Position numbers and translations under genes: made by a program. 64,000 nucleotides of DNA, taken from assembly GCA_034417895.1 (NCBI GenBank), contig DAOULT010000061.1:22379-86378 (forward strand), given 5' to 3'. This document shows, piece by piece, positions 1,817 through 61,508 of this stretch (the first letter of the stretch is position 1; the number at the start of each line of letters is the position of its first letter). The stretch is from Anaerolineae bacterium (GTDB lineage Bacteria; Chloroflexota; Anaerolineae; CAZYHC01). Below the pieces are notes generated by a model, which had not been told where the DNA came from, did not search any database, and saw nothing but the letters and a program-made list of their open reading frames with translations.

Positions 1817-1966
1817 AGCCCAACCATGTAGCCGGAATGCGATGGAGAACCCGACTTTCTGAGGATATCATACCACAGGAGCCTGCCCCTCGCAAACCGG
1901 CGCAGGCTCTTTGTTATTTTGGCCCTTGCCGGTTTGGTGTTTCGTAGATTGTCTGGAGGGGAACTT

Positions 1967-21700: not shown

Positions 21701-21813
21701 ATGGGGGCCGGAACAGGGCCAGGGGACGCAGAGGTCTTCCTGGGCCGGCCAATGGCCCCCAAAAGCAGGCTGGTCACCACGACCAGCGTTAAAGCGATGT
21801 ACAGGTGTTTCAT
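15799..21813 (-). CDS. Bacterial alpha-2-macroglobulin family protein (about 2000 aa) with N-terminal Big_5/SbsA-type Ig domains and a CxEQ thioester motif
   Basis: The start is ATG 21813 with AGGAGGGAAG upstream and a signal peptide MKHLYIALTLVVVTSLLLGA. The thioester region is LEHFPYECSEQVVSRF. Its size and repeat architecture are typical of bacterial A2M. Confidence 0.85.
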   Translation of the reverse strand: MKHLYIALTLVVVTSLLLGAIGRPRKTSASPGPVPAPIVIQRTPERGQELPLEGPVELVFDRAMDQAAVENAFRIAPEVAGRFEWPDERTVRFYPAEPLARSTTYKVSLGMEAKAADGVSLAETYAFRFTTVGYLEVSQVIPAPESYDVETDGSLTVMFNRPVVPLTTLDEQADLPQPLTFEPQVTGRGEWLNTSMYIFTPDKPLAGGVTYTARVVAGLSDTTGGLLEEDYDWTFSTQPPEVTWTTPSTDQTLVAPVTKIEVQFNQPIDLSSFKEAFSLKTADGRRVIGDFEYYTNTLVFQPEEMLDFDQTYEVRIARGVTSLSGGEGMRADYEWRFTTAPLPRIIGTSPPDGTKDAYPYTDFRIHFNAPIDPDTVMGNLTMTPPLSPTQVYTYFDTWDNSFVLYFNPQPSTDYQVHIGPHIADPYGNTTGQEMTVRFTTAALEPMVRLHVPGLVGTYNAADPARLFVAYLNTSRLDLMLYGLDVDDFLQAQREGYDFIPPGRDLMRAWSVWVEAPLNEEQYLPVDLVEGGGRLPSGIYLLDIDSPDVTYERWWHRHLLVVSETNLTLKIADDEMLAWATDLPTGRPVAGLELKALDRDGDKLGAATTDADGLAHFDTGSGRSNTIFVLSEAPFTMGGEGWNPGVTSWDFGFNQEYKRDFRAHVYTERPIYRAGQTVYFRGIIRAEDDVHYGLPDLEPVYVTIRDAAGEEVYNEELELDEFGAFHGELALAGGASLGHYQIRANFAGSNFPGSFQVAAYRPPEFEVVVTPDQEEVVAGEPTKATVEVKYFFGGPVVDVPVQWNVMAETYRFKPPQFGRYRFTDTNDPWICFDCWWWYPEPPQVVLSGAGRTDKNGQLIVELPGNIAQLTVAPDREGPVGSRRLIVEATATGADNQVISGRKDIVVHQGEFYVGLAPRQYIGRAEKEMSVDVVTVDWAGERFPNQKLKVEVYRREWVNTFVEDEAGGGRWKWETVNELVFEETITTDQNAEAVTTFIPPKGGSYRIVVNGRDTTERLVQSSIFVWVSGREYVSWRRENNDRINLIADKGSYTVGETAEILIPSPFQGEHYALITVERGNIIHREVLQLESNSQVYELPITLDHVPNVYVSAVIVKGQDEDNPVANYKVGYAAFSVDPEPQKLTITLTPSVEKAGPGDTVTYQVRATDHTGEPVAAAFSLDLVDKAILTLSPRPPEAIVNTFYGQRGLGVSTSSGLAISINRLVLEQLKERGEEYDKHARGAEEGMMLGEVPPAPAATMTPGMAADEEFAEEKQAAPPPGVELREEFADTAYWNATVVTDRSGQASVEIPLPDNLTTWVCRGVAVTANTQVGEATSEILVTKPLLVRPVTPRFFVVDDRAELAALVNNNADQALDVVVALSSSGLKLHSDAEQTVNIPAGGEAKVTWDVTVLDVEEAELIFSAVCGEYSDAARPRLTTGPEGTLLVYRYSAPEVVGTGGQLVEQGTRTEVIALPPRYDERQGQLTIQLDPSLAAGMQDGLKYLEHFPYECSEQVVSRFLPNVLTYRALRELGIERPDLEEILPDLVETALNKLYLMQHDDGGWGWWYRSTSSNPHLTAYVILGMDKAREAGFEVREEVITRGLEYLFGQLVTSRELKGYRQANRQAFILYVMAEAGNAAWASEYTGDLLENREKLSHYGRALLAMTLDLINPNDDRLPTLLSDLNNAAILSATGAHWEEAHYDWWAMNTDTRSTAIILDALAKLDPDNDLIPNVVRWLMVARRDGIWETTQETAWALIALTDWMVVTGELQGQYEYFAALNDEELASGAVNAENVDQSIKLRVAVAELLRDQGNRLDIGRYEGPGRLYYTAHLKIYLPVEDIEPINRGIIVYRQYTRADCAVGKECEEVDSAKVDDVIQVKLTIVAPHDLYYVVVEDPLPAGAEAIDPSLATTSLLERDPHLYRQSQNERWREFYWWWWRWYSRYEMRDEKMVLFADYLPAGSYEYVYTFRATLPGEYRVIPTFANEMYFPEVFGRSDGRLFTISE

Positions 21814-21837
21814 TTTCTTCCCTCCTGATCTCAGGTG

Positions 21838-21856
21838 ATCGTGGACGTACCACGAT
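21838..21856. promoter_or_regulatory. Inverted repeat ATCGTGG-acgta-CCACGAT, about 25-45 nt upstream of the A2M start; operator-like
   Basis: It has perfect 7-bp arms and an adjacent GCCATGGC palindrome. Confidence 0.25.
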
Positions 21857-22182
21857 GGCCATGGCGCTAAATCTACCTTAGAGACGTTGGAGCTGGCGAG
21901 AAAGTTCCCCCACGTTGCTGCTGATGGGTGCATTGTACCACAGCCTCTTCAGGGGGTCAAAGAGGACAGCAGGGGCCTGGCACGACGAACGTTCGCTGTT
22001 GAAGTGCCAGGCGGCTGAAAATTGGAAAGTCGGAAAAACGCGAAGAATATGGTATAATGTCAGGCGTGGAGCGGCCATTGACCGGCTCATTCGCAGGGGG
22101 CTGACGGCGAGGTGACACCGCTAGACGAAGGTTTCAATTTCGCATTGTGTTTATCTCCGAAGAGGAGAAAGGAGAAAATAAC

Positions 22183-23892
22183 ATGTACAAACTCATCACC
22201 AAGGGACTGCGTCTACTTTTCATCGTGGCCCTGGCTGCCGGGCTGGCTCTGGGCGCGGCGCCCGTGCCGGTGGCTCACGCCGCTACGATCAATGTCAACA
22301 GCACCACCGATAACACGACCGCTGGCGACGGCACCTGTACCCTGCGCGAAGCTATCAATAACGCCAACGCCGACGCCGATACTACCGGAGGCGACTGTGC
22401 TGCCGGCAGCGGCGCTGACACCATCAGCCTTCTTGCCGGCACCTACACCCTGACGATAGTTTCCACAGACGAAGACGCCAACGCCGACGGCGACCTGGAC
22501 ATCACAGGAGGAAGCGACCTGACCATCCAGGGCGCAGGCGCAGCCACCACCATCATCGACGGCAACGGCAGCGTGACGAATGGCCGTGTGCTCCACATCA
22601 CCATAAGCGACATCACCGTCAGCATAGACGGGGTGACCATTCAGAACGGCAACATGGGAGACTGGGGAGGGGGCATCTACAACCACGGCAGCCATTTGAA
22701 CGTCGCCAACAGCATCATCTCCGGCAACCAGGCAAGCCACCACGGCGGCGGCATCTTCAACTTCGGCGGCACGGCGACCATCTCTAACAGCACCATCTCC
22801 GGCAACCAGACAATACACTACGGCGGCGGCATCGACAACAGCGGCGCGGTGACCATCACCAACAGCACCATCTCCGGCAACCAGGCAAACTGGGGCGGCG
22901 GTGGCATCCGCAACAGCGGCGGCACGTTGAACGTCGCCAACAGCACCCTCTCCGGCAACCAGGCAGACTCTGACGGCGGCGGCATCTACAACGGGAGCGG
23001 CACGACCACCCTGGACAACGTGACGATTAGCGGCAACACCGCCAGCGGCGACGGCGGGGGGGTCACCGGGGACCCCCAATATGGCGGTATAGTCAATCTC
23101 AGAAACACCATCATCGCCGGGAACACCGACACGGGCGGAGAAGCGCCCGATGGTAGCGGGACGCTTACCTCCCTGGACTACAACCTGGTAGGGAACAGCA
23201 CGGGCTGCACCATCACCCTGCAAGCGAACGACCAGATAGGCACCGGCGGCAGTCCCATTGACCCCATGCTGGGACCCCTGGCCGACAACGGCGGCGCGAC
23301 GCACACACACGCCCTGCTCATCGGCAGCCCGGCCATTGATAAGGGCCATTGCACCGACAGCGGCGGCAACCCTGTCACCACCGACCAGCGCGGCGTGGCC
23401 CGGCCACAAGGCGCTACCTGCGACGTCGGGGCATACGAGAAAGCCATTGCGCCTGGCGTGCCAGATTTGTCCATCGGCAAGAGCGCCATCCCTGATCCGG
23501 TGATTGCTGGCGGCCTGTTGACCTACACCATCAACGTGGCCGAAAGGGGCGGCCTGGTAGACGCTACCGGGGTGCAGATGACCGACACCATACCCGCCGA
23601 CACCGTTTTCGCCTGGGCCGACAACGGCGGCTCTCTGGTGGGCGGCGACGTGCTATGGTCGGGCCTGACCATCAGCGCCAGCCAGAGCATCAGCATCGCC
23701 TTTGTAGTGACGGCCAGCTATAGACCCCATGCCACCACGCTCCGCTGGTTCCTCCACAACGATCACTACCAGGCGGTCATCGCTACCACCGCAGGGATAA
23801 GCGTGGTGACAGGCAGCGCCGTGACCACCACGGTACGGGCCATTGGAGCCTATCTGCCCACCATCCAGAGGAACAACGTCATCACGCCGTAA
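22183..23892 (+). CDS. Secreted CSLREA-domain protein with right-handed beta-helix repeats (NSTISGNQA rungs) and a C-terminal DUF11 domain
   Basis: The ribosome-binding site AGGAGAAAGGAG precedes the ATG at 22183. It has a signal peptide, a GDGTCTLREAINNANAD motif, about eight NxTISGNQ(A/T) repeats and a DUF11 motif (PDPVIAGGLLTYTINV). Confidence 0.75.
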   Translation: MYKLITKGLRLLFIVALAAGLALGAAPVPVAHAATINVNSTTDNTTAGDGTCTLREAINNANADADTTGGDCAAGSGADTISLLAGTYTLTIVSTDEDANADGDLDITGGSDLTIQGAGAATTIIDGNGSVTNGRVLHITISDITVSIDGVTIQNGNMGDWGGGIYNHGSHLNVANSIISGNQASHHGGGIFNFGGTATISNSTISGNQTIHYGGGIDNSGAVTITNSTISGNQANWGGGGIRNSGGTLNVANSTLSGNQADSDGGGIYNGSGTTTLDNVTISGNTASGDGGGVTGDPQYGGIVNLRNTIIAGNTDTGGEAPDGSGTLTSLDYNLVGNSTGCTITLQANDQIGTGGSPIDPMLGPLADNGGATHTHALLIGSPAIDKGHCTDSGGNPVTTDQRGVARPQGATCDVGAYEKAIAPGVPDLSIGKSAIPDPVIAGGLLTYTINVAERGGLVDATGVQMTDTIPADTVFAWADNGGSLVGGDVLWSGLTISASQSISIAFVVTASYRPHATTLRWFLHNDHYQAVIATTAGISVVTGSAVTTTVRAIGAYLPTIQRNNVITP

Positions 23893-25927: not shown

Positions 25928-26554
25928 ATGCGTAAAACAAAAGACAATGCTAAATTCCCCTCAGGTTTATCTATTCTAATCGTCGTGGGCCTGGCCCTGG
26001 TTATGCTGCTTGCGGCCAGACCTACCGTCTGGGCTACGGGAGAGCAACAGACTATACCTACTATACCTACTATACCGACCATACCCTCTCCACTGACCAT
26101 CACCAAGACCGACTGTCCTGATCCGGTGGAGCCAGGCGCTATTCTCAACTACACCATCGTGGTCGCTGCCGTGGCCCCTGTCGTACCGGACGGGCCAGCA
26201 GACGAGTGGGCGGGGGCAGGGCAGGTTAGCTCTCGGCAGACCCTCCCTTACGGCATAGTGGTGACCGACGTCGTGCCGGCTAACACCACTTTCTCCAGCG
26301 CCGATAGCGGCGGCACGTACATCAGCGCCACAAACATGGTGGTCTGGTCGGGCCTGTCAATCACCGCCGGCGAGAAGATCACTGTACAGCTCAATGTCCG
26401 GGTCGCCCAAGGTCTATCCGTGGGAACGGTTCTCGAGAACGCCTACTACGGGGCGATGGTAACAAACACCGCGGGAGTGAGTGCTACGGTGGGTGTCCCG
26501 GTCACCACTACGGTGGCGTGGAACCCTCTGAGGCTGCCTCTCATTCGGAAGTAA
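25928..26554 (+). CDS. Small secreted DUF11-domain protein, a paralog of the protease C-terminal domain
   Basis: The ribosome-binding site AAGGAGG is present. It has a signal peptide, a TIPTIPTIPTIP repeat and PDPVEPGAILNYTIVV. The C-terminal 100 aa align with the C-terminus of the 11568..15041 protein, and both end in LPLIRK. Confidence 0.7.
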   Translation: MRKTKDNAKFPSGLSILIVVGLALVMLLAARPTVWATGEQQTIPTIPTIPTIPSPLTITKTDCPDPVEPGAILNYTIVVAAVAPVVPDGPADEWAGAGQVSSRQTLPYGIVVTDVVPANTTFSSADSGGTYISATNMVVWSGLSITAGEKITVQLNVRVAQGLSVGTVLENAYYGAMVTNTAGVSATVGVPVTTTVAWNPLRLPLIRK

Positions 26555-32211: not shown

Positions 32212-35061
32212 TTACTCACCTATCCATATCTCTCCCAACACCACCCTGTCCCCCATAGCCTCTCCCCCGGCCTCGAAGGCCGGGAGGCGCGCCCCGCTGG
32301 CCTCCTCGTACATCCCAATCTCGACCACGTACCGGCCCGGCGGCGCATCGGCCCGCACCGGGAGACGGTAGGTGTCGCTCAGATATTCTCCCGGCTGCCA
32401 GCCGCTGGTAGGCGGGTCGGGGAACTTATCCTGCTGGCCCCAAATGTGGCCCGCCTGGTCTACCAGGTGGGTGAAGACCTTGTAACTTTTATCCATAGAA
32501 TGCAAAGCCTGCCAGTAAAGGGTCAGGGAGAGCGTCTGGCCGGGCGAGAGATGATCGGCGCTTAAGTCGTAGCCCACCAGCCCCACCCCCTGGCCCAGAC
32601 GCGCTTCCAGGGGATGCTGGATGTTCTGGGGCCGCTCGAAGAGAGCCGGACGGCCCTGAACGGCCACCGTCGCCAGGGTGAAATAATCCTCCCCGCAGAA
32701 AAACCATAGTCCCGATCTTCGCCTCAGCCGCGAGCGGTCGGCGGCGCGGTATAAGCCCACGACGAGACGATATCGCCCGGCCGGCGCGCCAGCCGGAAGC
32801 AGCAGGTCGTGAGGGTCGCGCACGATCTCTTCTCGCCTCCAGCCAGAGGTCGGGTAGCGGCCTGCTACTGGCCCAGACTCCTCCGCCGCCTGCCAGACTC
32901 CCTCGTCGTCCAGCAGCTCTATAAAAACGACGTAGTCTGCCAGATTGTCGGCCAGCGCTCGCCAGAAAAGATCGACGGTCAACTGACCGCCTGGCTCGAC
33001 GGTCAGGGCCGACAGGTCGTAGCCCATAAGCTCCACCTGGTGGGCGAAGTTGGCCCTGGCCGCATAGGTCATGGCTGGCGCTCCCCTGGCAGTCGGGGGG
33101 CAGCTGATTTCTACAGAACCTATCCCGATCCAGGGACCCTGGTCGCGCGCCTCCAACGCCTTCCCCGTGTGCGGATCGTACATCCCCACTTTCAACTCGT
33201 ACCGGCCAGGCGGCGTACCGGGGGGCACGGTCAGACGCAAGGGATGGCGGACGACCTGCCCCACGGCCCAACGCGCAGGGCCGTAGAGCGGGCCTGAAGG
33301 CACCTCGTCCACCTGGGCCCACAGACGACCCTGCGGCCCGAAAAGGCCACAAACGACGTGATAATCCCGCTTTGGGGCCAGCCGAGGCTCCCAATACAGG
33401 GCCAGGTCGAGGGCCTCGCCTGCCGCCACAGAGTTTAGCGCTGCTTCGTAGCCTGCCAGGGTCAGCTCGTCGTCCAGGCTGAGGTCGAGGGTGTGGGTGG
33501 GGGACGATTGGCGATTGGTGAGATAGCCCTGCGCCCTGACGTTGCTCTCCCCGCTGAAAACCCGATCGTCGAATTTCAGGCCGTGCTCGTCGAGCCAGGC
33601 GCGGACGAAGCCGTCCACATCGACTACGGTGTCGTAAGCGCGCAGCACCCACAGGCGAGGGTGGGCGGCAAAGACTCGCTCCAGGGCGTGGGCCGTCTCC
33701 TGTTCGCTGGTAGCGTAGAAATCCGAAGCCGCATCGCCCCACCCCAGGCCGGGGTCGCCGCCAATGGAGCCTGTTTGCAAGACCACCAGGCCCTCTCTGT
33801 CCGTCGCCACGTAATCCACCAGCCGCCCCCGCCAGGCGATGTCGTCATCTCCCCGGTAATAATAGAGAAAAGTGGGGTAAACGTACCCGGCGTTGACGAG
33901 CACGGCGTCGCCAAGCCGGTAGCCCTGGACGATGTGGCTCACTGCGGCGCGGTAATCGTCGCTGGCGTATTGGCTATCGAAGTGAAAGCGGTAGAAAGAA
34001 TAGCCCAAAGCAGCCACCACGATGGCCGCCCCCAGGAGGGCTATGGGCCGGGAGCGTCCGGCCAGCCAGGCCAGTCCCGCCGCCAACAGTACGTAGAAGG
34101 CCGGCGAGTAAGTGAAAACGTAGCGGATGTGGAAAAGCGGCGTCCAGAAGGAAGCCAGATAAATGAGGGCCAGCGGCCCAAAAGTGTGGCCCAAAAGCAG
34201 CAGGCCAGAGCCCGGTGAGCGGCGAAGGAAACCCAGAATGTAAATGGCCGCTATAATTAGCAATACCGGCCAGACCGCCCCCGGCGACACAGATTGCCCC
34301 AGAGCCAGAGCTGACCACGACTCGACGACCACCGTCCAGACAGAGGTGAAGGCCCGCCAGGGAGGGACGGGCGGATCAAGGGCCTGGCGCAAAGCGATGG
34401 GCAGCCAGGGCAGGTAGAGTACCACGACGGCCAGTTGGGCCAGGCTCCATTTCCGAATCCACTTCCAGGGCCGCCGCCGAGCGACGATCCAGCAGCCCAC
34501 GTAGAGATTGATGAAAATGAGCAGAAAGGCGAAATAATAAAGGACGTAGAGACCCAGCACGGCGCTCAAAACGTATCCGAGCCAGGGGCCTAAGCTCGTA
34601 CCATGCCGCAGTTGGAGCAGATAGTGGAGGGTCAGCAGGCCCAGGCAGGCCCCCAGGGTATACATCCGTATCTCCTGGGAGTACCATACATTGTAGGGGG
34701 AGAGAGCTACCGCCCCGGCGGCCAGCAACCCCACCACAGGATCGTAGAGACGCCGCCCCAGGCGATAAACCAGAGGGACAAGCAACACCCCAAAAATGAG
34801 GGACAGGAAGGCCGCCGCGAACTCGCTGGAGCCTGCCGCTCTGATCCAGAAATGCAGCAGGTAATAGTAGAGAGGAGGATGGATGTCGCCGGCCGTGTGA
34901 GCGGTCAGGGCTGGCAGACTCCTGGCTGCCAGGTGGAGACTGACCGCTTCGTCGTACCAGATGCTCTGATAGCCGAGCCTGTAGAGGCGCAAGGCGCAGC
35001 CCCCCAGAATGATGCCGAGCAATATTGCCCGCCGCCTCCCACCGAGATGGTTTTTGTCCAC
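32212..35061 (-). CDS. Polytopic membrane protein with an N-terminal GT-C fold (glycosyltransferase family 39 / ArnT-PMT-like) and three C-terminal LYW repeats
   Basis: It has the N-terminal WYDEAVS motif followed by more than 10 transmembrane helices. Three repeats of about 120 aa contain GYDL...L.LYW.AL ... PTSGW ... APGRY..VG.Y. Confidence 0.8.
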   Translation of the reverse strand: MDKNHLGGRRRAILLGIILGGCALRLYRLGYQSIWYDEAVSLHLAARSLPALTAHTAGDIHPPLYYYLLHFWIRAAGSSEFAAAFLSLIFGVLLVPLVYRLGRRLYDPVVGLLAAGAVALSPYNVWYSQEIRMYTLGACLGLLTLHYLLQLRHGTSLGPWLGYVLSAVLGLYVLYYFAFLLIFINLYVGCWIVARRRPWKWIRKWSLAQLAVVVLYLPWLPIALRQALDPPVPPWRAFTSVWTVVVESWSALALGQSVSPGAVWPVLLIIAAIYILGFLRRSPGSGLLLLGHTFGPLALIYLASFWTPLFHIRYVFTYSPAFYVLLAAGLAWLAGRSRPIALLGAAIVVAALGYSFYRFHFDSQYASDDYRAAVSHIVQGYRLGDAVLVNAGYVYPTFLYYYRGDDDIAWRGRLVDYVATDREGLVVLQTGSIGGDPGLGWGDAASDFYATSEQETAHALERVFAAHPRLWVLRAYDTVVDVDGFVRAWLDEHGLKFDDRVFSGESNVRAQGYLTNRQSSPTHTLDLSLDDELTLAGYEAALNSVAAGEALDLALYWEPRLAPKRDYHVVCGLFGPQGRLWAQVDEVPSGPLYGPARWAVGQVVRHPLRLTVPPGTPPGRYELKVGMYDPHTGKALEARDQGPWIGIGSVEISCPPTARGAPAMTYAARANFAHQVELMGYDLSALTVEPGGQLTVDLFWRALADNLADYVVFIELLDDEGVWQAAEESGPVAGRYPTSGWRREEIVRDPHDLLLPAGAPAGRYRLVVGLYRAADRSRLRRRSGLWFFCGEDYFTLATVAVQGRPALFERPQNIQHPLEARLGQGVGLVGYDLSADHLSPGQTLSLTLYWQALHSMDKSYKVFTHLVDQAGHIWGQQDKFPDPPTSGWQPGEYLSDTYRLPVRADAPPGRYVVEIGMYEEASGARLPAFEAGGEAMGDRVVLGEIWIGE

Positions 35062-36814: not shown

Positions 36815-38155
36815 ATGCTGGATGGTAAAATCAAGCGCAGAGATTTCTTGAAACTGAGCGCGGCCACTATGGCCACCATGACCCTGGGCCGCTCATTGGC
36901 TTTTGCTCAGCCGCTCTCGCTCTGGATGAACACCCTGTTTCATGGCGGTGACGCCCAGGCCATGGAAAGGATCATCCAAAAGTTCAACGAGGAGCAGAAG
37001 GAGCAGGCGTTCATCTCCCTGACGCAGGGCCAGTGGGAGGTGTACTACAGCCAGTTGTTCAACTCCGTGGTGGCTGGTAATCCGCCCCAGATTGGCATCT
37101 GCCATACCACCAACCTGCCTGAGGTGGATGCCGCTTTGACCCACCTGGAGGAATCCCCGGCGGGCAATCTTCTGGAGGTAGCGGGGATCGAAGCCGACAA
37201 TTATCTCCCCGCGCTGTGGGAGGGCGGGGTGTACAACGGGGTGCGCTACCTGATCCCGCTGGACAGCCACATGTGGGGGACGTGGTACAACAGGAGCCTG
37301 TTCGAAGAAGCAGGGCTGGACCCGGATAACCCTCCCGATAACATGGAGGATTTCGAGGCGGCCTGCAACGCCATCATGGAGACGGGCAAACGCGCCTTCT
37401 TCGCCGCCGACCTGGGGGCCCCCAGACACATCCGCCGCGCCTGGTGCATCTTCCTGTGGCAGATGGGCGGCGAACTGTTCGACGAAGGTTACACCAAAGC
37501 CACCTTCAACGACGACATCGGAGTGGCCGCCCTGGATTTCCTGGTCAGCACGGTCACGCCCACCGATGGCAAGGTGATGGGCACCGACACGCCGGGCAAG
37601 GGCTGGAACGAGCCAGGCTCCGACGGCAACAAGCAGTTTACAGCCGGCGAACTGGGGATGCTCTGGGTCGGCAACTGGTTCTACTGGACGGCTAAGGAAA
37701 GCGGCGTCGATTTCGACTTCCACTACATCCCCAAATTGTTCGATAAACGGGTGACGTGGGGCAACAGCCACAACCTGGTCATCCCCTTGCAGGCCAGCGG
37801 CGTCTCGGACGAGGTATACGTCGCTGCCATCAAGGCCATCAAGTGGATCAACGAGAACTCCGATATCTGGGGCATCTACGGCGGACACATCCCCGCTTAC
37901 AAGCCCGTGTTCGAGAGCGCAGAGCTACAGGCGTCCGACACCTGGAAGACGTGCCTCAAGAAGTTCGTCGATATGGCCGCCGCCGAAGAGGATGGCGGCC
38001 TGGACGCCTTCCGCTACGACGTCTTCCACCCCAAGATTTCCAAGATTCTGGCCGCCATGGACCCGCTCATCGAAGAAGCTTTCAACGGCACGATGTCCCC
38101 GCCGGACGCTTTAGCCCAAGCCGAAGAGAACGTGAACGCGGTGCTGGCCGAATAA
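36815..38155 (+). CDS. Sugar ABC transporter substrate-binding protein (family 1) with a Tat/Sec signal
   Basis: The N-terminal signal is RRDFLKLSAATMATMTLGRSLAFAQ. It is followed downstream by two permease genes. Confidence 0.85.
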   Translation: MLDGKIKRRDFLKLSAATMATMTLGRSLAFAQPLSLWMNTLFHGGDAQAMERIIQKFNEEQKEQAFISLTQGQWEVYYSQLFNSVVAGNPPQIGICHTTNLPEVDAALTHLEESPAGNLLEVAGIEADNYLPALWEGGVYNGVRYLIPLDSHMWGTWYNRSLFEEAGLDPDNPPDNMEDFEAACNAIMETGKRAFFAADLGAPRHIRRAWCIFLWQMGGELFDEGYTKATFNDDIGVAALDFLVSTVTPTDGKVMGTDTPGKGWNEPGSDGNKQFTAGELGMLWVGNWFYWTAKESGVDFDFHYIPKLFDKRVTWGNSHNLVIPLQASGVSDEVYVAAIKAIKWINENSDIWGIYGGHIPAYKPVFESAELQASDTWKTCLKKFVDMAAAEEDGGLDAFRYDVFHPKISKILAAMDPLIEEAFNGTMSPPDALAQAEENVNAVLAE

Positions 38156-38952: not shown

Positions 38953-39774
38953 GTGAGGTTCATCCGTATGGAAAGTGAGCAAACCGTGAAGCAACTTGAC
39001 AACCTTCTATCGCCGAACCAACGGCAGGCTTTGGCCGAGGTGCGTCGCAGGCTGTTGGGCGATCCCGATATCGAAGTCGAGGAAATCGTGCTGTATGGCT
39101 CCGTCGCCCGCGGGGAGGCGGATGAGGAATCCGATCTCGATCTGCTGGTGGTGACGGCCAGGCCACTCAGCCGGACTGAAAGTCACGAGAAGATAACCCA
39201 CGTTGTGTTCGAGGTGAATCTACGTTTCGACACAAACGTCAGCACCCTGGTAGTTGATCGCCACGAGTGGGAGACTGGTCTTATAGCGGTTCTGCCCATT
39301 CGAGAAGAAATCCTGCGCGATGGTGTACCATATTTCAGGCGAAATCCTTCGAGACGGAGTATCAGTATGAACACTGATGAACAGCGCGCCGAAGCAGTGC
39401 GCCGCTTTTGGGCCATGGCCCAGGAAAGCCTGGCCTCTGCCAGGCTCGTACTCGAAGCTGGTCATTATACATCCGCCCTCAACCGCATTTACTACGCTGC
39501 ATTTTATGGAGTGAGTGCTGTGCTTCTTGAGCGTCGGTTGTCTTTCAAAAAGCATTCTGGAGTTCGCACCGCGCTTCATCGAGATCTTATCCAGCCTGGA
39601 TTACTTGATTCAAAGTGGGGCAAGTTTTACGACGATCTTTTCCGGGATCGTCATGCAGGGGATTACAATGCGTTCGCTTCATTCGACCGCGAGTACATAG
39701 AGTCTCACCTTGCCCGCTGCACCCGGTTCCTGGCCGAACTTCGTCCCCTGATCACCTCGTTACCGCAGGAGTGA
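38953..39774 (+). CDS. Fused minimal nucleotidyltransferase (MNT) plus HEPN domain protein
   Basis: The N-terminal nucleotidyltransferase motif is LYGSVARGEADEESDLDLLVV. The C-terminal HEPN domain is LESARLVLEAGHYTSALNRIYYAAFYGVSAVLL ... RDRHAGDY. Confidence 0.75.
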   Translation: MRFIRMESEQTVKQLDNLLSPNQRQALAEVRRRLLGDPDIEVEEIVLYGSVARGEADEESDLDLLVVTARPLSRTESHEKITHVVFEVNLRFDTNVSTLVVDRHEWETGLIAVLPIREEILRDGVPYFRRNPSRRSISMNTDEQRAEAVRRFWAMAQESLASARLVLEAGHYTSALNRIYYAAFYGVSAVLLERRLSFKKHSGVRTALHRDLIQPGLLDSKWGKFYDDLFRDRHAGDYNAFASFDREYIESHLARCTRFLAELRPLITSLPQE

Positions 39775-39779
39775 CATTA

Positions 39780-40685
39780 GTGTTCAACAAGGTATCATCC
39801 TTCCTGAAAAGAACAGGCATCGCCGCCGAGGTGGAGGGAATTTTGTTCATCCTCCCTTACGCCGTGTTCTGGCTGCTTTTCCTGGTCTGGCCTCTCATTT
39901 ATGGCTTTTACATCAGCCTGTTCAAGTGGGACCCTTTGCGTGGCTCGAAGTTCCTGGGCTTCGGCAACTACGCGGCTCTCTTCCGCGACCCCAGGTTTTG
40001 GAACGCTTTTTTCAACACCTTCGAGTTTGCCCTCATTGCCATTCCTTTGATCGTCGTCCTGGGGCTGGCCTTCGCTCTGCTGATGAAAGGGGCCAAGGTT
40101 ATAGGCAGCCAGTTTGTAGAGGCCAGTTTTTTCTTCCCCTACCTGCTGACCGTCTCCATCGTAGCCATAGTATGGGAGTGGCTTTTCGACCCCGACTTTG
40201 GCCTGATCCTGGAATATCTGTCCGGTTTGGGGCTGAACCCGCCGGTCTTTTTGAACGATAAGCTGTGGGTCATACCGGCCATCGCCTTTACCACGGCCTG
40301 GTGGCTGGCGGGCTACAGGATGGTCATCTTCAGGGCCGCCCTGGAGGACATACCACAGGAATTATACGAAGTGGCCGAGCTGGACGGGGCCACCTGGCTG
40401 CAAAAACTGTGGTGCATCACCCTGCCGCTACTGAAACCGGCCATCTTATTTGCCGTGGTCCTGACTGCCATCTCCGGGTTCAGGGTCTTCGGCCAGGTGT
40501 TGATGATGACCGATGGCGGGCCGGGCACGGCTTCTGAGGTATTGGCCCTCTACCTGTACCGCTACGGCTTCACTTTCCTGGAGATGGGCCAGGCAGCGGC
40601 CACCGGCTTCGTTTTGCTTTTGATCGTGCTGGCCGTAACTTTGATCAGCTTCAGGCTACTGGGCTTTGAATCAGAATTGAGGTGA
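39780..40685 (+). CDS. Sugar ABC transporter permease (MalF-like)
   Basis: The ORF track starts at 39615, overlapping the previous gene. The likely start is GTG 39780, which follows the stop of the MNT-HEPN gene. It has 6 transmembrane helices. Confidence 0.8.
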   Translation: MFNKVSSFLKRTGIAAEVEGILFILPYAVFWLLFLVWPLIYGFYISLFKWDPLRGSKFLGFGNYAALFRDPRFWNAFFNTFEFALIAIPLIVVLGLAFALLMKGAKVIGSQFVEASFFFPYLLTVSIVAIVWEWLFDPDFGLILEYLSGLGLNPPVFLNDKLWVIPAIAFTTAWWLAGYRMVIFRAALEDIPQELYEVAELDGATWLQKLWCITLPLLKPAILFAVVLTAISGFRVFGQVLMMTDGGPGTASEVLALYLYRYGFTFLEMGQAAATGFVLLLIVLAVTLISFRLLGFESELR

Positions 40686-40695
40686 GAGACAGGCA

Positions 40696-41523
40696 ATGAA
40701 GGAAGGGGTGGCAAAGAAGGTCCTCAAACACCTGTTTTACTATGCCCTGGCGCTCTTATGGCTCGTTCCTATACTATGGATGGCAGATACGGCTTTTAAG
40801 CCTTCGCCGGAGATATTTGTCCACCCGCCCAGGTGGCTCCCTTCTTACCTTACCCTGAAGCACGTGCGCGGCATCCTGACCGACTGGCCTTTTGTCGAAT
40901 GGGTGATAAACAGCTTCGTGGTAGCCAGCAGCGCCACCCTGATATCCCTGGTAGTCTCGGTCTTGGCCGGGTTTTCCTTTGCCCGGCTGCGCTGGCGGGG
41001 ACGGGACATCATATTTGTGATCTTTCTAAGCTCCATGCTGATACCCTGGGAGGTCGAGGTGGTGCCCCTGTATTTCATAATGAACAAATTTCGCCTGCTC
41101 AACACCCGGCCTGGGGTTTTTCTTCCCTTCGTGGCTATGCCCATCGGCATTTTCCTGCTCAGGCAGTTTTTCATCAACATCCCCGTAGAGCTGGAGGATG
41201 CGGCCCGGATAGACGGCTGCGGCAGCCTGGGAGTGCTGTGGCACGTCACTTTGCCGGTGTCCAAACCGGCGCTGGTGGCTTTAGGCATCTACATGTTTAT
41301 CTTCTCCTGGAACGAGTTCTTGTGGTCCCTGATTTCTTTGCAAAGCCCGCAGATGTTGACCCTGCCCATTGGCCTGAAGCTCATTCGTGGGGTGCACGAT
41401 ATGGAATATGGTCTGTTTATGGCCGGCTCCTTCCTGGCCTCCTTACCGGCTTTGCTGATATTCCTGGTGCTTCAAAGGAGGATCATCAAAGGGATAGCCA
41501 TGACCGGCGGCATCAGAGGGTAG
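40696..41523 (+). CDS. Sugar ABC transporter permease (MalG-like)
   Basis: The EAA loop is EDAARIDGCGSLGVLWHVTLPVSKPAL. Confidence 0.85.
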   Translation: MKEGVAKKVLKHLFYYALALLWLVPILWMADTAFKPSPEIFVHPPRWLPSYLTLKHVRGILTDWPFVEWVINSFVVASSATLISLVVSVLAGFSFARLRWRGRDIIFVIFLSSMLIPWEVEVVPLYFIMNKFRLLNTRPGVFLPFVAMPIGIFLLRQFFINIPVELEDAARIDGCGSLGVLWHVTLPVSKPALVALGIYMFIFSWNEFLWSLISLQSPQMLTLPIGLKLIRGVHDMEYGLFMAGSFLASLPALLIFLVLQRRIIKGIAMTGGIRG

Positions 41524-43465: not shown

Positions 43466-44707
43466 ATGACAGATGAGAACCTACCACAAAATTCAGAAGT
43501 TGACAGCGTGGCTAGAAATCAGGTAGCGGCCCTGAAGACCCTTCAGAGCGTAGCCCAAACCCTGGCCTCCGAGTTGGATCTGGGAAAGTTGCTCAGAGAG
43601 ATCATCCATGCCTCCGTCGAGATTTTGAATGCCACTACCGGCTCTCTGCTCATCTGGGACCGCAACGACGACACCCTGGTCTTCGCTGTGACGGAGGGAG
43701 CCGAGGGCAGGAAGCTCGAAAATCGCCGCATCTCCACCCGTGAAGGTCTCGCGGGCTGGATTTTCACCTTCCGTCAGCCGGTCATCGTCGATGACGTGAG
43801 CAAGGATGGCCGATTCTTCAGCGCCATCGACGAGAGCGTGGGCCACCATACCACGTCGTTGATCGGCATCCCCCTTATGACCAAGGGAGAGATGATAGGG
43901 GTCATCGAGGTTCTGAACAAAAAATCGGGAGAAAAGTTCCACGAGCACGATCTGGAGATGCTGAGCGCCCTGGCTAACCATGCGGCCATTGCTATCAAAA
44001 ACGCCCGTCTCTACCGTGCTCTCCGCGAGGAGAGGGATCGCCTCATCGACGTGGAGGAAGAAGTGCGCAAGAAACTGGCCCGCGATCTTCACGATGGTCC
44101 GGCCCAAACTCTGGCCTCCATACTGATGAGTATCGATTTTATCCGGCAGGCCCTGGAGAAAGACCCCTCCCAGGCAGAAGCAGAACTGGAGAGCCTCGAA
44201 CAGGCAGCCAGGAAGACCCTGCATCAGGTGCGCAATATGCTTTTCGAGCTTCGCCCCGTCGTCCTGGAAGCGGAGGGCCTGGAAGCCGCGTTACGGGCCT
44301 ACGTAGAACGCCTGCGCGAAGTCGATGACATGACTATCCATCTCAGTCTGAAGGGACTCGAAGAACGAGTGCCGCCCAAAGTCGAGGAGGTCAGTTTCGC
44401 CATCGTCCAGGAGGCTCTTAGCAACGCCAGAAAACACGCCCAGGCCCGCAACGTCTGGCTGACGGTCAATCGCAGCGAAGAAACGCTCAAGGTGGTCATC
44501 AAGGACGACGGAATCGGCTTCGATATGCATAAGATAGGGCAAAAATATGCCGAAAAAGGAAGCCTGGGACTACTCAATATCCGGGAACGGTCCGAGATGT
44601 TAGGGGGGCAGGTTTCCATCAAGTCGAGGCCGGGCAAGGGCACTTCAGTCACCCTGGTCGTTCCCTTATATCAAAAAGGTTCTGATCACAAGTCATCAAC
44701 GAATTAG
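43466..44707 (+). CDS. GAF-domain sensor histidine kinase (HisKA_3 / NarL-type partner class)
   Basis: It has a GAF region, an H-box LHDGPAQTL and a C-terminal HATPase region (GIGFD ... GLLNIRER). Confidence 0.85.
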   Translation: MTDENLPQNSEVDSVARNQVAALKTLQSVAQTLASELDLGKLLREIIHASVEILNATTGSLLIWDRNDDTLVFAVTEGAEGRKLENRRISTREGLAGWIFTFRQPVIVDDVSKDGRFFSAIDESVGHHTTSLIGIPLMTKGEMIGVIEVLNKKSGEKFHEHDLEMLSALANHAAIAIKNARLYRALREERDRLIDVEEEVRKKLARDLHDGPAQTLASILMSIDFIRQALEKDPSQAEAELESLEQAARKTLHQVRNMLFELRPVVLEAEGLEAALRAYVERLREVDDMTIHLSLKGLEERVPPKVEEVSFAIVQEALSNARKHAQARNVWLTVNRSEETLKVVIKDDGIGFDMHKIGQKYAEKGSLGLLNIRERSEMLGGQVSIKSRPGKGTSVTLVVPLYQKGSDHKSSTN

Positions 44708-44771
44708 CGAAGAGGGCTAATCCAGGAATTGGCAAAAAAGAGCGCAGGTCTTGCTCTCAGAGCAAGTCCTT

Positions 44772-44827
44772 TTTTAACCAGATTTTAACCTTATTTTAAC
44801 CAGATAATAACCATAACGTGGTATAAT
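44772..44827 (+). promoter_or_regulatory. Promoter cassette copy D: four phased TTTTAACC/TAACC boxes at 11-bp spacing plus extended -10 GTGGTATAAT, upstream of the receiver gene
   Basis: TTTTTAACCagaTTTTAACCttaTTTTAACCagataaTAACCataacGTGGTATAAT. Confidence 0.45.
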
Positions 44828-44883
44828 GGAAGTGAGGCTTGACCGAAGAGCCGGACAATAACTTTCTGGAGCGGGGGAGAAAG

Positions 44884-45249
44884 ATGAAAAAGAAGGCCAG
44901 AATCATGGTGGTGGACGATAACGAAGCCATGAGGGAAAGCTTCCGGCTGATACTCTCGGCCGAGGGTTATGAGGTGGTCACGGTGGAGCGTGGCCTGCAA
45001 GCCCTGGCCAGGTTGGGGGAAAACTCTTTCGACCTGGTTCTGACCGACCTGGCAATGCCCGGTATGAGCGGTCTGGAATTGTTGGGCAACATCAGAGCCA
45101 TAGCTCCTCAAACAGCAGTGGTGGTCGTTACCGGCCAGACATCGTTGCCCTCGGCCCTGATGGCCCTGCAAAGGGGAGCCAGCGATTACCTCGATAAAAC
45201 TATGAGCGCTGAAGAGATGTTGAGCGTGATCCGAAAAACTCTAAGGTAA
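44884..45249 (+). CDS. Single-domain response regulator (CheY-like receiver only)
   Basis: ARIMVVDDNEAMRESF ... DLVLTDLAMPGMSGLELL. There is no output domain. Confidence 0.85.
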   Translation: MKKKARIMVVDDNEAMRESFRLILSAEGYEVVTVERGLQALARLGENSFDLVLTDLAMPGMSGLELLGNIRAIAPQTAVVVVTGQTSLPSALMALQRGASDYLDKTMSAEEMLSVIRKTLR

Positions 45250-45642: not shown

Positions 45643-48390
45643 ATGTACCAACGTTTGCGAAAGGGGGTAGCCAAAATCGATCCCGGCCTGGTGGTGATCT
45701 TTTTGGCTACCCTTTTCGTTATTTTTCCTTTCCTGCGGCCCGGTCTGCCCGGCACCGCCGATGCTCCCATCCACCTTTTTCGCGCCGCTGAATGGGGGCG
45801 TTGCTGGACGGAGGGGGTCTATTATCCTCGTTGGGCCCCTGACCTGGCTTTTGGCTACGGCTACCCTCTTTTCATTTTTGCTCCCCCCCTGCCTTACGTC
45901 ATCATCCAACTGTTTCACCTCCTGGGGGCCAGCCTGGAGACGGCCACCAGGCTGCTGCCCATCCTCTGTTTTCTCCTGGCCGGAGGGGGCATGTATCTTT
46001 TCGTCAGAGAGGTCATGGGGAGCAGAGGGGCAGTGCTGGCCGCAGTAGCCTACATCTATGCTCCCTTTCAGCTTCGGGAAGCCCTGATCTACGGCGGAAA
46101 CTATCCTCAACTCCTGGCGGTGGCCTTTTTCCCTTTCATCTTGTGGGCCATTCACCGGCTGGTGATTACGGGCCGCGCTCGGTACATGGTGATGGGCGCG
46201 GTCCTGTATGGCGGCCTGATCCTCAGCCACAATTTCCACGCTCTGGTCTTCAGCCCTCTCCTGCTGGCATACGCTTTGCTCCTTTTGCTTCTACACGGCA
46301 AGGGAAGAAGATTTCTGGACGTGGGCCTGACCGTTATTCTGGGCCTGGGCCTGACGGCGATCTTCTGGCTGCCCGCCCTCTACGAGCGGCGCTGGTGCAT
46401 GGCCCAGGAAGCTTTTTACCTGGAGCGCAGCGATTTACATCTGCGTTTTCTGGACTGGGGGGAACTGCTGGCTCCGCCGGTGCCCCTGGATTCCGCCGCC
46501 GCCAACCCGTACATGCCTTTCAGCCTGGGGCTGGCCGCTCTTTTGCTGGCATTGGTGGCCCTGCTCGTTTTCGCCCTGAAACGCTCCTTAGAAGGATTAC
46601 AGGCGGCTTTTTTTCTCCTGGTGCTGCTGGCTGCGGTCTTTCTGATGCTGCCCCTTTCCGCCCCCATCTGGGAGAGGATGCCCTTTCTGGCTACCGCCGA
46701 GTTCCCCTGGCGCTTTATGGGTCTGGCCAGTGTGGCGGTCGCTTTTCTGGCCGGGGCCAGCCTGCATCTGTTGGAGGGTGGAAGGGTGGAAGGGTGGAAG
46801 AAAACGCTTGCTCTCGCTGGTTGTTTACTTTTCGTGTGGCTGACCTCGGCTGTCTACCTTTATCCGCCCAGGCCCTTTGTCCTTTACGGCACCCCCTCCC
46901 TGGCCGATGCTGTGCGGTTCGAGGTGGCGACCCAGACCATCGGCACCACCACCCTGGGCGAATATAACCCGCGCTGGGTCGAGGCGGTGCCTTCTACCTC
47001 TCCTCTGGTGGAGGATTATCTGGCCGGACGCCCCCTCGATAAGCTGGACCGTGAGGCCCTGCCCGACGGTGTGCGGGCCGATAAGCTGGAACACACGGCC
47101 ATTTCCGACCGCTACCATTTCCAGAGCGCAGAGCCATTTGTGGCCCGCTTCCACACCTTCTACTTTCCTGGCTGGCGAGCTTACCTGGACGGCCAGCCCG
47201 TAGAGATCGAGATCACCAAACCCGAGGGTCTAGTGGCCGTGACCGTGCCCGCCGGAGAGCACAAGCTCCTGCTCCGCTTCGAGAGCACGCCCGACCGCGC
47301 CATTGGCGGCCTACTCTCTCTGGCCTCGGTTCTGGGGCTGGGGGCGGTGGCCGTCTTCCGCGGCGGACAGGCATCCGAACGCTCTCCCAAACGAGTCCTG
47401 CCCACGAGACAGGCCCTGGGCCTATCCTGTCTCGTGCTGGCCCTCTTCCTGGTCAAAGTGGCAATCATCGACCCTTACACCACCCTGTTCCGGCGGCGCT
47501 CTCCAGCGGGCCAGGTCATAGGGGTTGAACATCCAGCCCACGTCAACCTGGACGACAAAGTTCTCTTCCTGGGCTACGACCTGGCAAGCGACACGGTGCG
47601 CCAGGGCGAGGCTCTGCATCTGCGACTATACTGGCAGGCCCTACACCCCCTGGAAAAAAATTACAGTTCTTTCGTGCACCTGGACGCCCGGCCCGATCTT
47701 ACCACTCACGCCGGGTCCGATAACCCCCATCCGGGCGACGCCAGGGCGCAGATAGATATCCCGACGACCACCTGGAGCACTGACACTTACGTCCGAGACG
47801 AACACCACCTGGCAGTAGCGGCCCAAATCCTGCCCGTGGAGTACATCCTGCGCGTGGGGCTTTACGATCAGAAGACGAACGAGAGGCTGGCCGTGCTGAA
47901 CGACCAGGGAGAGGCGGTGGACGAGGCCATCACCTTGCAGCCCATCCAGGTATTATGGGCCAGGCCGCCGAAGCCGTCTTATCAGGAGCAGTTTGTCCTG
48001 GGTGGCAAAATCGAGTTTCCAGGCTACGATCTGAGCGGCACGGCGCTCCAGGCCGGCGATACTCTGGAAGTCAGGTTGTATTGGCGGGCAACAGCAAAAG
48101 TGGAGAGGGATTATACCGTTTTCGTGCACCTTCTGGACGAAGGGGGCCAGATGCGAGGGCAAAAAGATGGCCCGCCCGCCGAAGGCATGTATCCCACCAC
48201 CTCGTGGCGGACGGGTCTGGTGGTCGAAGACCGGCACCTGATCCCTCTAACGGTCGCCCCTGGCCGCTACCGACTGGCGGCAGGCATGTACGATTTGAAA
48301 ACACTGGAAAGGCTGGCAACCGTGGACGCCGCCGGGGAACGCCTGCCGGACGATCAGATCATCCTCGGCCAGGAGATAATCGTCAGGTAA
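45643..48390 (+). CDS. Polytopic membrane protein (putative GT-C-like glycosyltransferase) with two C-terminal LYW repeats, paralogous to the C-terminus of 32212..35061
   Basis: About 12 transmembrane helices precede repeats of LFLGYDLASDTVRQGEALHLRLYWQAL ... and EFPGYDLSGTALQAGDTLEVRLYWRA ... TTSWRTG ... APGRYRLAAGMYD. Confidence 0.75.
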   Translation: MYQRLRKGVAKIDPGLVVIFLATLFVIFPFLRPGLPGTADAPIHLFRAAEWGRCWTEGVYYPRWAPDLAFGYGYPLFIFAPPLPYVIIQLFHLLGASLETATRLLPILCFLLAGGGMYLFVREVMGSRGAVLAAVAYIYAPFQLREALIYGGNYPQLLAVAFFPFILWAIHRLVITGRARYMVMGAVLYGGLILSHNFHALVFSPLLLAYALLLLLLHGKGRRFLDVGLTVILGLGLTAIFWLPALYERRWCMAQEAFYLERSDLHLRFLDWGELLAPPVPLDSAAANPYMPFSLGLAALLLALVALLVFALKRSLEGLQAAFFLLVLLAAVFLMLPLSAPIWERMPFLATAEFPWRFMGLASVAVAFLAGASLHLLEGGRVEGWKKTLALAGCLLFVWLTSAVYLYPPRPFVLYGTPSLADAVRFEVATQTIGTTTLGEYNPRWVEAVPSTSPLVEDYLAGRPLDKLDREALPDGVRADKLEHTAISDRYHFQSAEPFVARFHTFYFPGWRAYLDGQPVEIEITKPEGLVAVTVPAGEHKLLLRFESTPDRAIGGLLSLASVLGLGAVAVFRGGQASERSPKRVLPTRQALGLSCLVLALFLVKVAIIDPYTTLFRRRSPAGQVIGVEHPAHVNLDDKVLFLGYDLASDTVRQGEALHLRLYWQALHPLEKNYSSFVHLDARPDLTTHAGSDNPHPGDARAQIDIPTTTWSTDTYVRDEHHLAVAAQILPVEYILRVGLYDQKTNERLAVLNDQGEAVDEAITLQPIQVLWARPPKPSYQEQFVLGGKIEFPGYDLSGTALQAGDTLEVRLYWRATAKVERDYTVFVHLLDEGGQMRGQKDGPPAEGMYPTTSWRTGLVVEDRHLIPLTVAPGRYRLAAGMYDLKTLERLATVDAAGERLPDDQIILGQEIIVR
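46776..46799 (+). repeat. Perfect tandem repeat (GGGTGGAA)x3 inside the CDS
   Basis: It is directly visible in the sequence. It encodes EGGRVEGWKK. The 8-nt unit is not a multiple of 3. Confidence 0.6.
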
Positions 48391-54412: not shown

Positions 54413-54472
54413 AGGCTCTACCTGGGCTATCAGCCCCGGAAAATCTCGTGACCCGGGTAACCTACCACCTGA

Positions 54473-55558: not shown

Positions 55559-55563
55559 TCACT

Positions 55564-57429: not shown

Positions 57430-57510
57430 TCTCCTCCCAGGGGCCTGGCACTTCCAAAGGGCCAGTCACCTGAGTCAAATAGACGCGCCTTCTTCCATCA
57501 TGGGTTAAAC

Positions 57511-59400: not shown

Positions 59401-59430
59401 CTGTCGCCATTCCTTGACTGATGGGGAAAA

Positions 59431-61467: not shown

Positions 61468-61508
61468 AATTACCTCGGTTGTTATAGCCAGTAAGTATCT
61501 GCCCTCGC

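Follow-up and report, generated by a model that had tools for sequence, protein, structure and literature searches.

A recurrent beta-sandwich module on GT-C membrane proteins of Anaerolineae and other Chloroflexota, a candidate binding domain for envelope glycans

The mycobacterial transferase AftD harbors three beta-sandwich carbohydrate-binding modules (CBMs), which have been explained by its complex glycan acceptor (bioRxiv 10.1101/2019.12.22.885152). In EmbC, the C-terminal domain is a lectin-like CBM, and its tryptophans are required for acceptor binding and activity (PMC3044687). The carbohydrate-binding domain of Wzt (Wzt-CBD) is cytoplasmic and dimeric; it has a jelly-roll fold and uses the flat surface of a sheet to bind the O-antigen cap (PMC9445017). 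In this study, we analysed a stretch of 64,000 nucleotides (the window) from an Anaerolineae bacterium (GenBank assembly GCA_034417895.1, contig DAOULT010000061.1, forward-strand positions 22,379 to 86,378). It encodes two polytopic membrane proteins, here called P1 and P2, that end in tandem copies of the same module. The P1 gene lies on the minus strand (32212..35061; 949 amino acids (aa), GTG start) and encodes a GT-C glycosyltransferase of the PMT_2 type with three C-terminal modules. The P2 gene lies on the plus strand (45643..48390; 915 aa) and encodes a GT-C protein of the PTPS_related/YfhO type with two. A first-pass annotation made from the letters of the window had pointed out both genes and their repeats, and open reading frames (ORFs), translations, motif positions and BLASTP confirmed them. 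Like AftD and EmbA/B/C, P1 and P2 combine a GT-C membrane core with several subsequent beta-sandwich domains that are predicted to be extracytoplasmic. The module is not peculiar to these two proteins, a pattern that the first-pass annotation did not contain: the cores that carry it belong to at least five GT-C families, whose genes are often neighbours. The domain family itself is new, being unnamed and having about 28,000 representatives. As its function we propose, giving this about an even chance, that the modules are tethered extracytoplasmic domains binding the acceptor polymer (carbohydrate) of envelope-glycan GT-C enzymes in Chloroflexota, mainly Anaerolineae.

The module has a core of about 130 aa and a repeat period of about 143-150 aa, and is thus longer than the 120 aa or so first estimated. 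Paired GY[DE]/L[YF]W motifs start at aa 537/555, 680/698 and 830/848 in P1 and at aa 644/662 and 794/812 in P2. When the C-terminal regions of both proteins were compared by BLASTP, E-values of 2e-34, 1e-32, 8e-22 and 3e-15 were obtained at 29-33% identity, a similarity far beyond chance. A hidden Markov model (HMM) built from the five copies found exactly these five in a six-frame translation of the window. Their alignment has 14 invariant columns (G-Y of GYDL; G, L, L; W of LYW; Y, L, P, W, Y, G, Y, L), and the module motif reads GYDL...LTLYW...Y-VF-HL-D...Q-D..P..G..PT..W..GE...D-Y...PG-Y-LE-G-Y...RL. A consensus of this kind had been proposed for all copies; module 1 of P1 is a diverged variant with GYEA and LYWEP, lacking F-x-HL and PTS. 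On the module regions of P1 and P2, nothing scored above the gathering score in Pfam-A (2025 copy) or NCBIfam 20.0, and the same was true of Pfam-A for 80 individual modules, in agreement with the earlier impression that this was no named domain. Among the 80 modules, faint sub-threshold Pfam matches were obtained to ML (the commonest, 10 modules, best E 0.0014), RbmA-like FnIII (9), Wzt_C (5), MG2 (5) and DUF4832 (4), the top score being that of DUF4832 on one fragment (24.0 bits against a cut-off of 29.2). In contrast to this lack of annotation, the module is abundant. A hmmsearch with the five-copy profile against 1.84 billion cluster representatives, in which matches carry no taxonomy, returned 28,175 proteins at E<=1e-3, of which 19,199 reached E<=1e-10 and 5,457 reached E<=1e-30. 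Three matched stretches were usual among the best 150 matches, some having two or four. A tblastn search with the three-module region against 72,556 plasmids gave no match, and the protein is not a known defence protein, since PADLOC returned nothing. A low-complexity artefact could be dismissed from the confident fold described below, the position-specific conservation and the tens of thousands of homologs. Recent tandem duplication was ruled out as well, as the copies are only 29-38% identical and their order is kept across orthologs and is common to PMT_2 and DUF2079 cores. The alignment of the copies, the number of profile matches and the signatures of the single positions point to a genuine domain under selection.

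The three P1 modules were delimited by HMM domains, alignment and conservation among 117 three-module orthologs, in which each position keeps its own signature. Module 1 (aa 526-655; 33097..33486, minus strand) is of the diverged m1 type, module 2 (aa 669-805; 32647..33057, minus) of the m2 type and module 3 (aa 819-949; 32215..32607, minus) of the canonical terminal m3 type. According to position HMMs, three-module proteins of the PMT_2 and DUF2079 types have the same m1-m2-m3 order, and single modules are mostly of the m3 type. Both P2 modules (module 1, aa 633-770, 47539..47952; module 2, aa 783-915, 47989..48387; plus strand), defined by HMM domain, alignment and position HMMs, are m3-type as well. 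The stretch most widely retained over the three positions is D..P..G..P...W..G. The consensus of the terminal module is essentially identical on the five core clusters described below (LGYDL, LTLYW, Y-VF-HL-D, Q-D..P..G..PT..W..GE...D-Y, G-Y..E-G-Y, RL).

In the alignment of 80 modules, the expected core residues (L-x-L-x-L-x-W and glycines) are conserved, and so are a number of others. At least 90% conservation was found for the polar positions D14, H47, Q58, D60, T67, D78 and R107 and for the aromatic positions Y13, Y42, Y93 and Y100, while W70 is invariant. Such polar and aromatic conservation would exceed what the fold alone should be expected to need, and W70, Y13/42/93/100, H47, Q58, D14/60/78 and R107 are candidate residues of a carbohydrate site. 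Because this set is independent of the catalytic core, one common ligand or partner can be argued for. Alternatively, the modules might bind no substrate and serve as rigid spacers that raise part of the enzyme into the wall layer and/or oligomerise the co-encoded GT-C enzymes. The copy number, which ranges from 1 to 4 per protein, would fit such a scaffold, as would the absence of some canonical residues from the internal m1 and m2 variants and the dimeric state of the structural neighbours Wzt-CBD and RbmA; a module common to co-encoded enzymes could equally be a docking unit. However, a pure spacer would not keep about 12 polar/aromatic residues across five core families. Moreover, the terminal module, which is farthest from the membrane, is the best conserved (family-HMM score 116 bits, the other two 88 and 80 bits in the 117 orthologs), the opposite of what is expected of a linker. 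We therefore regard a scaffold without ligand binding as unlikely.

Module 3 of P1 was modelled with AlphaFold2 (AF2) from the 80-sequence alignment. The model, an all-beta domain with ten strands, has a mean predicted local distance difference test (pLDDT) of 97.8 and a predicted TM-score of 0.90, in line with the beta-rich repeat suggested in the first-pass annotation. Foldseek matched it to NIS1, Wzt C-terminal domains, NPC2/ML, FnIII domains of GH3 enzymes and CARDB, and arrestin and MG-domain structures were also among the matches. The predicted two-sheet sandwich can be superposed on E-set domains, a class with about 7-9 strands, and is an ordinary Ig-like/E-set sandwich rather than a new fold. 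The highest TM-scores (0.59-0.64) were those of the Wzt C-terminal domains 2r5o, 8dky and 6o14, and the module superposes on the beta-sandwich of Wzt-CBD. In terms of the model, its closest whole-domain look-alike is accordingly a proven polysaccharide-cap-binding domain. Since sequence identity to the structural neighbours is 10-15% throughout (10-13% to Wzt), homology to any single one of them is not established. The NPC2 matches raise a different option, in which an ML/NPC2-like sandwich would handle the lipid carrier by capturing either the polyprenyl-phosphate-linked donor or the released carrier lipid. ML is indeed the most frequent faint Pfam match, and Foldseek finds NPC2 structures at E 3.5e-5 to 1e-4. 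Their TM-scores (0.48-0.59) are nevertheless below those for Wzt, the alternating L-x-L-x-L-x-W strand suggests, together with the AF2 result, a packed hydrophobic core and no cavity, and two to three tandem copies distant from the membrane are ill-suited to a membrane-embedded lipid. Lipid-carrier handling is thus a very improbable role for the module.

The membrane core of P1 (aa 1-365; 33967..35061, minus strand) shows multiple hydrophobic segments in a hydropathy scan and blocks conserved among orthologs, and Pfam PMT_2 (PF13231) matches aa 61-219 with 44.1 bits against a cut-off of 26.1. The WYDEAVS motif, already noticed in the first-pass annotation, is located at aa 35-41 (34939..34959, minus), in the first loop after transmembrane (TM) helix 1; this loop probably faces outward. 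In the alignment of 118 sequences (P1 and its 117 orthologs), conservation is 95% or higher for W-Y-D-E-A as well as for the DIHPPLYY and SQEIRMY blocks. We take D37/E38, from general knowledge of GT-C enzymes, to be the candidate catalytic acidic pair, and conservation of the WYDEA and DIHPPLYY blocks makes an active core probable. The soluble middle domain between the last TM helix and module 1 (aa 366-525; 33487..33966, minus) has conserved patches among orthologs and no match in Pfam, NCBIfam or PDB sequences. More than 1500 relatives of P1 were found at E<=1e-5, the best 120 mostly full-length, and the named ones are annotated as 'glycosyltransferase family 39 protein [Anaerolineae bacterium]'. 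Although NCBI names the orthologs so, P1 does not conform to CAZy GT39 (Pmt): the PMT model PF02366 is not among its Pfam matches at E<=1, and neither a MIR nor a TPR domain was found by Pfam. The best NCBIfam mannosyltransferase equivalog reaches 39.7 bits on P1 against a cut-off of 900, and ArnT (GT83) models are not among its NCBIfam matches at E<=1. For neither P1 nor P2 was any NCBIfam equivalog reached or any PDB chain found by sequence search.

The core of P2 (aa 1-406; 45643..46860, plus strand) has about 10-11 TM helices in the hydropathy scan, and PTPS_related matches at aa 81-376. Pfam scores are above the cut-off for PTPS_related (PF10131; 63.5 versus 26.4), PMT_2 (37.7) and YfhO (PF09586; 33.4 versus 28.5), and P2 covers the N-terminal parts of the profiles only (PTPS_related 5-282 of 621, YfhO 84-380 of 835). 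The clan GT-C (CL0111) contains PTPS_related as well as PMT_2 (PMC7801869). The first-pass annotation had called the cores GT-C-like and different from each other, and both statements are borne out by the Pfam matches and by the conserved acidic motif of the P1 orthologs. It had also called the proteins paralogous, and here the modules and the cores have to be separated. Judged from sequence, P1 and P2 are clearly homologous in their modules (E 2e-34 to 3e-15), and their cores are only distantly related. The layout of P2 after the core was derived from hydropathy and loop charge. A hydrophilic loop of 147 aa forms the first predicted extracytoplasmic soluble domain (aa 407-553; 46861..47301, plus), followed by a TM hairpin (aa 554-615; 47302..47487, plus) with the basic connecting loop RGGQASERSPKR, which would bring the chain back to the outside, and by the two modules. 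The soluble domain has no family assignment in Pfam or NCBIfam and a faint match to the C-terminus of PgfM2; its YFPGW..LDG motif recurs in the fragments P0264 and P0302. P2 has 707 relatives, which where named are called '6-pyruvoyl-tetrahydropterin synthase-related protein [Anaerolineae bacterium]'. An identical protein with the same neighbour genes is found on contig CAZHQI010000007.1 of the metagenome-assembled genome (MAG) GCA_964534025.1.

Short basic loops precede the last helices of both proteins (RSR in P1; KGRR, KR, EGGRVEGWKK and RGGQASERSPKR in P2). Because these basic loops before the last TM helix should lie inside according to the positive-inside rule, the modules are placed outside the membrane, as the first-pass annotation had predicted. 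The Kyte-Doolittle scan undercounts the TM helices of P1, so that loop charges around the last helices were used and not helix parity.

Relatives in other genomes were collected with two peptide patterns typical of the terminal module, YTVFTHLLD and [QH]LTLYWQA. This genome scan confirmed 439 relatives, of which the best 76 loci were examined. All 76 come from MAGs of Chloroflexota, which bear the labels Anaerolineae, Anaerolineales, Caldilineae, Chloroflexota or Chloroflexi, and all relatives with taxonomic names are Chloroflexota. The suggestion of lineage specificity is not established by this, as the sample is biased: the scan rested on a narrow 13-sequence alignment of terminal-type modules, and the 28,175 profile matches are without taxonomy. 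The 76 loci contain 168 module-bearing ORFs, the N-terminal regions of which form five BLAST clusters. Pfam assigned four of them to PMT_2/PMT, to PMT_2 plus a DUF2142-like signal, to DUF2079 (E 1e-65 to 1e-72) and to PTPS_related, and gave no match for the fifth. Of 48 additional module proteins taken from the representative search, 38 match PMT_2, 26 PMT, seven TMEM260-like (E down to 1e-35) and one DUF2079. The fusion partners are thus essentially always GT-C cores of at least five families (PMT_2/PMT, PMT_2/DUF2142-like, DUF2079, PTPS_related/YfhO and TMEM260-like), and short proteins with nothing but modules seem to be gene calls that were truncated. Runs of at least two neighbouring co-directional module-bearing genes are present in 42 of the 76 loci, with up to four core families in one array. 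For example, locus L001 has a run of four PMT_2-type module genes, in L036 four different core types are adjacent, and L007 contains a long co-directional module-gene array as well. Between them, the overlapping loci L015 and L002 (contig JAUVXJ010000002.1, about 313-336 kb) carry within about 22 kb six module genes with PTPS_related, PMT_2 and DUF2079 cores, two GT4 genes and a 697-aa Pfam-less ORF. The 143 non-module neighbour ORFs include eight GT4 and six GT2 genes, and a GT87 GT-C gene inside an array, a module-less PMT_2 gene and a TPR protein gene were found as well.

Some genes of these loci deserve separate mention. A 1,679-aa protein (L068:6471-11507, plus strand) has a GT-C core and two modules and ends in a six-hairpin glycosidase-like (Bac_rhamnosid6H) domain; a transferase seems here to be joined to a hydrolase-like domain. 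Large Pfam-less ORFs lie in or beside arrays at L047:1095-3383, L051:1-1644, L015:8638-10728 and L032:6511-8601 (all plus strand); those of L047 and L051 carry one module each on an unclassified N-terminal region. These ORFs may represent further unrecognised GT-C-like cores.

In the mechanism that we propose, P1 and P2 would belong to a large group of Chloroflexota (mainly Anaerolineae) GT-C enzymes that are predicted to depend on polyprenyl-phosphate sugars and to act at the outer face of the cytoplasmic membrane. The one to four Ig-like beta-sandwich modules of about 130 aa that follow the last TM helix would bind the growing or finished envelope glycopolymer, i.e., the acceptor, and keep it near the active site. 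Since the same module with the same residues is found on different, often co-encoded cores, the module-bearing enzymes probably share one polymer. What the analysis demonstrates are the repeats, their fold, the lack of annotation, the abundance, the GT-C fusion partners, the gene arrays and a conservation independent of the core; the outside location, glycan binding, the identity of the ligand and a common polymer are inferred. Several points weigh against glycan binding. The PMT and TMEM260-like families are best known for protein O-mannosylation, which would make the acceptor a protein. No Pfam CBM or Wzt_C model reached its threshold on the 80 modules, and searching PDB sequences with profiles of 5 and of 80 modules yielded chance-level matches only (ribosomal protein S6, ScaR, pikachurin). 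The topology is based on a crude Kyte-Doolittle hydropathy scan and loop charges, and the full-length AF2 model of P1 from its single sequence was unusable at a pLDDT of 39. Finally, P1 and P2 are solitary and lie among housekeeping genes rather than glycan clusters, and the P1 orthologs in other genomes are likewise solitary.

The first of these points leads to the alternative that the enzymes are protein O-glycosyl (mannosyl) transferases and that the modules recognise folded or unfolded protein acceptors, e.g., sheath, S-layer or beta-sandwich surface proteins. Many module-bearing cores match PMT_2 (38/48), PMT (26/48) or TMEM260-like (7/48), families named for protein O-mannosyltransferases; Ig-like domains often bind proteins, as the arrestin and MG-domain fold matches recall; and a multi-beta-sandwich surface-type protein of 819 aa is encoded just downstream of P2. 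Yet P1 itself falls below the PMT model PF02366 and is without the MIR or TPR domains that bind acceptors, and PMT_2 also takes in ArnT-like lipid and glycan transferases. DUF2079, PTPS_related/YfhO and GT87 partners together with GT4/GT2 neighbours fit polysaccharide assembly better, and the top whole-domain structural matches bind glycans. Recognition of a protein acceptor is therefore given a rather low probability. Returning to glycan binding, a bolder version can be formulated, tentative and somewhat doubtful as it is. The module could be the signature of an undescribed major envelope-glycopolymer assembly line that is widespread in Anaerolineae and other Chloroflexota, in which a new CBM family would hold each enzyme of arrays of up to six or more GT-C enzymes, from at least five families, on one and the same polymer. 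Potentially, this would be the monoderm counterpart of mycobacterial arabinogalactan/lipoarabinomannan biogenesis, with the H/Q/D/W site as recognition epitope.

Within the window, P1 and P2 are neighboured by dtd, dapA, sugar ABC transporter genes, a nucleotidyltransferase-HEPN (NT-HEPN) gene, a SdhA-like flavoprotein gene and genes for a GAF histidine kinase and a response regulator. A dedicated operon in the window was ruled out by the dtd, dapA, sugar ABC transporter, SdhA-like flavoprotein and two-component flanks. The 819-aa protein downstream of P2 (49081-51540, plus strand) consists of many beta-sandwich repeats (CarboxypepD_reg, SdrD_B, SpaA-like, Y_Y_Y) and is separated from P2 by an opposite-strand 175-aa gene, an arrangement also seen on contig CAZHQI010000007.1. 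It may be a surface protein and, conceivably, a substrate for glycosylation. The GAF histidine kinase and response regulator genes (43466-45249, plus) are directly upstream of P2. In loci L078-L080, a hybrid kinase/regulator pair lies directly downstream of the P1 orthologs and is followed by sugar ABC transporter genes, which are near P1 in the window too. The presence of two-component genes beside both module genes may be coincidence. The NT-HEPN fusion gene (38953-39774, plus), which is toxin-antitoxin-like, sits inside the sugar ABC transporter genes, between the solute-binding protein gene (36815-38155) and two permease genes (39615-41523), and overlaps the longest ORF of the first permease. 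Farther away, a 2,044-aa bacterial alpha-2-macroglobulin with Big_5 repeats (15799-21933, minus) is encoded beside a thermolysin-like M4 protease of 1,157 aa that carries DUF11 repeats (11568-15041, minus), and two more DUF11 proteins are encoded at 22147-23892 and 25928-26554. A 949-aa protein (1919-4768, plus) combines a NACHT NTPase with a C-terminal FGE-sulfatase (formylglycine-generating-enzyme-like) domain. The region 52937-63152 (minus) is a possible exopolysaccharide cluster with a PelG-like exporter (61509-63152), two DUF2194 paralogs (55564-57429 and 57511-59400), a PD40 propeller protein (54473-55558) and two large Pfam-less proteins (59431-61467 and 52937-54412). An Rfam scan of the window gave no match.

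Sediments, wastewater sludge and subsurface habitats are rich in Anaerolineae, of which few have been cultured. To our knowledge, little is established about envelope and sheath chemistry in this class, and our literature search on GT39, GT-C or mannosyltransferase in Anaerolineae or Chloroflexi retrieved nothing relevant. About 28,000 cluster representatives without a Pfam or NCBIfam entry constitute a real annotation gap, for a module that is found almost only on array-clustered GT-C enzymes. Defining the family would allow proper annotation of genes now called 'GT39' or '6-pyruvoyl-tetrahydropterin synthase-related' and would draw attention to gene arrays whose probable product is an envelope glycan specific to the lineage. 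A recombinant module could, in addition, be a probe to capture and image the envelope polymer.

Among the known systems, Wzt_C (PF14524) is cytoplasmic, follows an ABC nucleotide-binding domain and occurs in single copy as a strand-swapped dimer, whereas the module comes after GT-C membrane cores and has a predicted outside location. The Wzt_C model matches only faintly (5/80 modules, best E 0.019), homology between the two not being established, and the module profile search of PDB sequences did not find Wzt chains. Other members of the E-set superfamily, such as the Ig-like/FnIII accessory domains of GH2 and GH3 enzymes, CARDB/NEW3, RbmA FnIII and MG domains, differ in that their Pfam models remain below threshold on the module, and the signature GYDL, LYW, F-HL-D, Q-D..P..G..PT..W is specific to the module family. 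With YfhO/PTPS_related and PMT_2 proteins, P1 and P2 share cores that score above the Pfam cut-offs, and the conserved EL1 acidic motif is present. Characterised ArnT, Pmt, Bacillus subtilis YfhO and human TMEM260 are, as far as we know, without this C-terminal module. In the mycobacterial GT-C set, many genes serve one envelope polymer; here, a GT87 gene lies inside a module-gene array. Because the concept of a GT-C core with acceptor-binding beta-sandwiches is established in mycobacteria, our finding extends known biology and overturns nothing. In summary, the fold and the concept are known; what is new is the domain family, its repeated use by five or more GT-C families and the occurrence of multi-GT-C arrays in a phylum that has been little studied.

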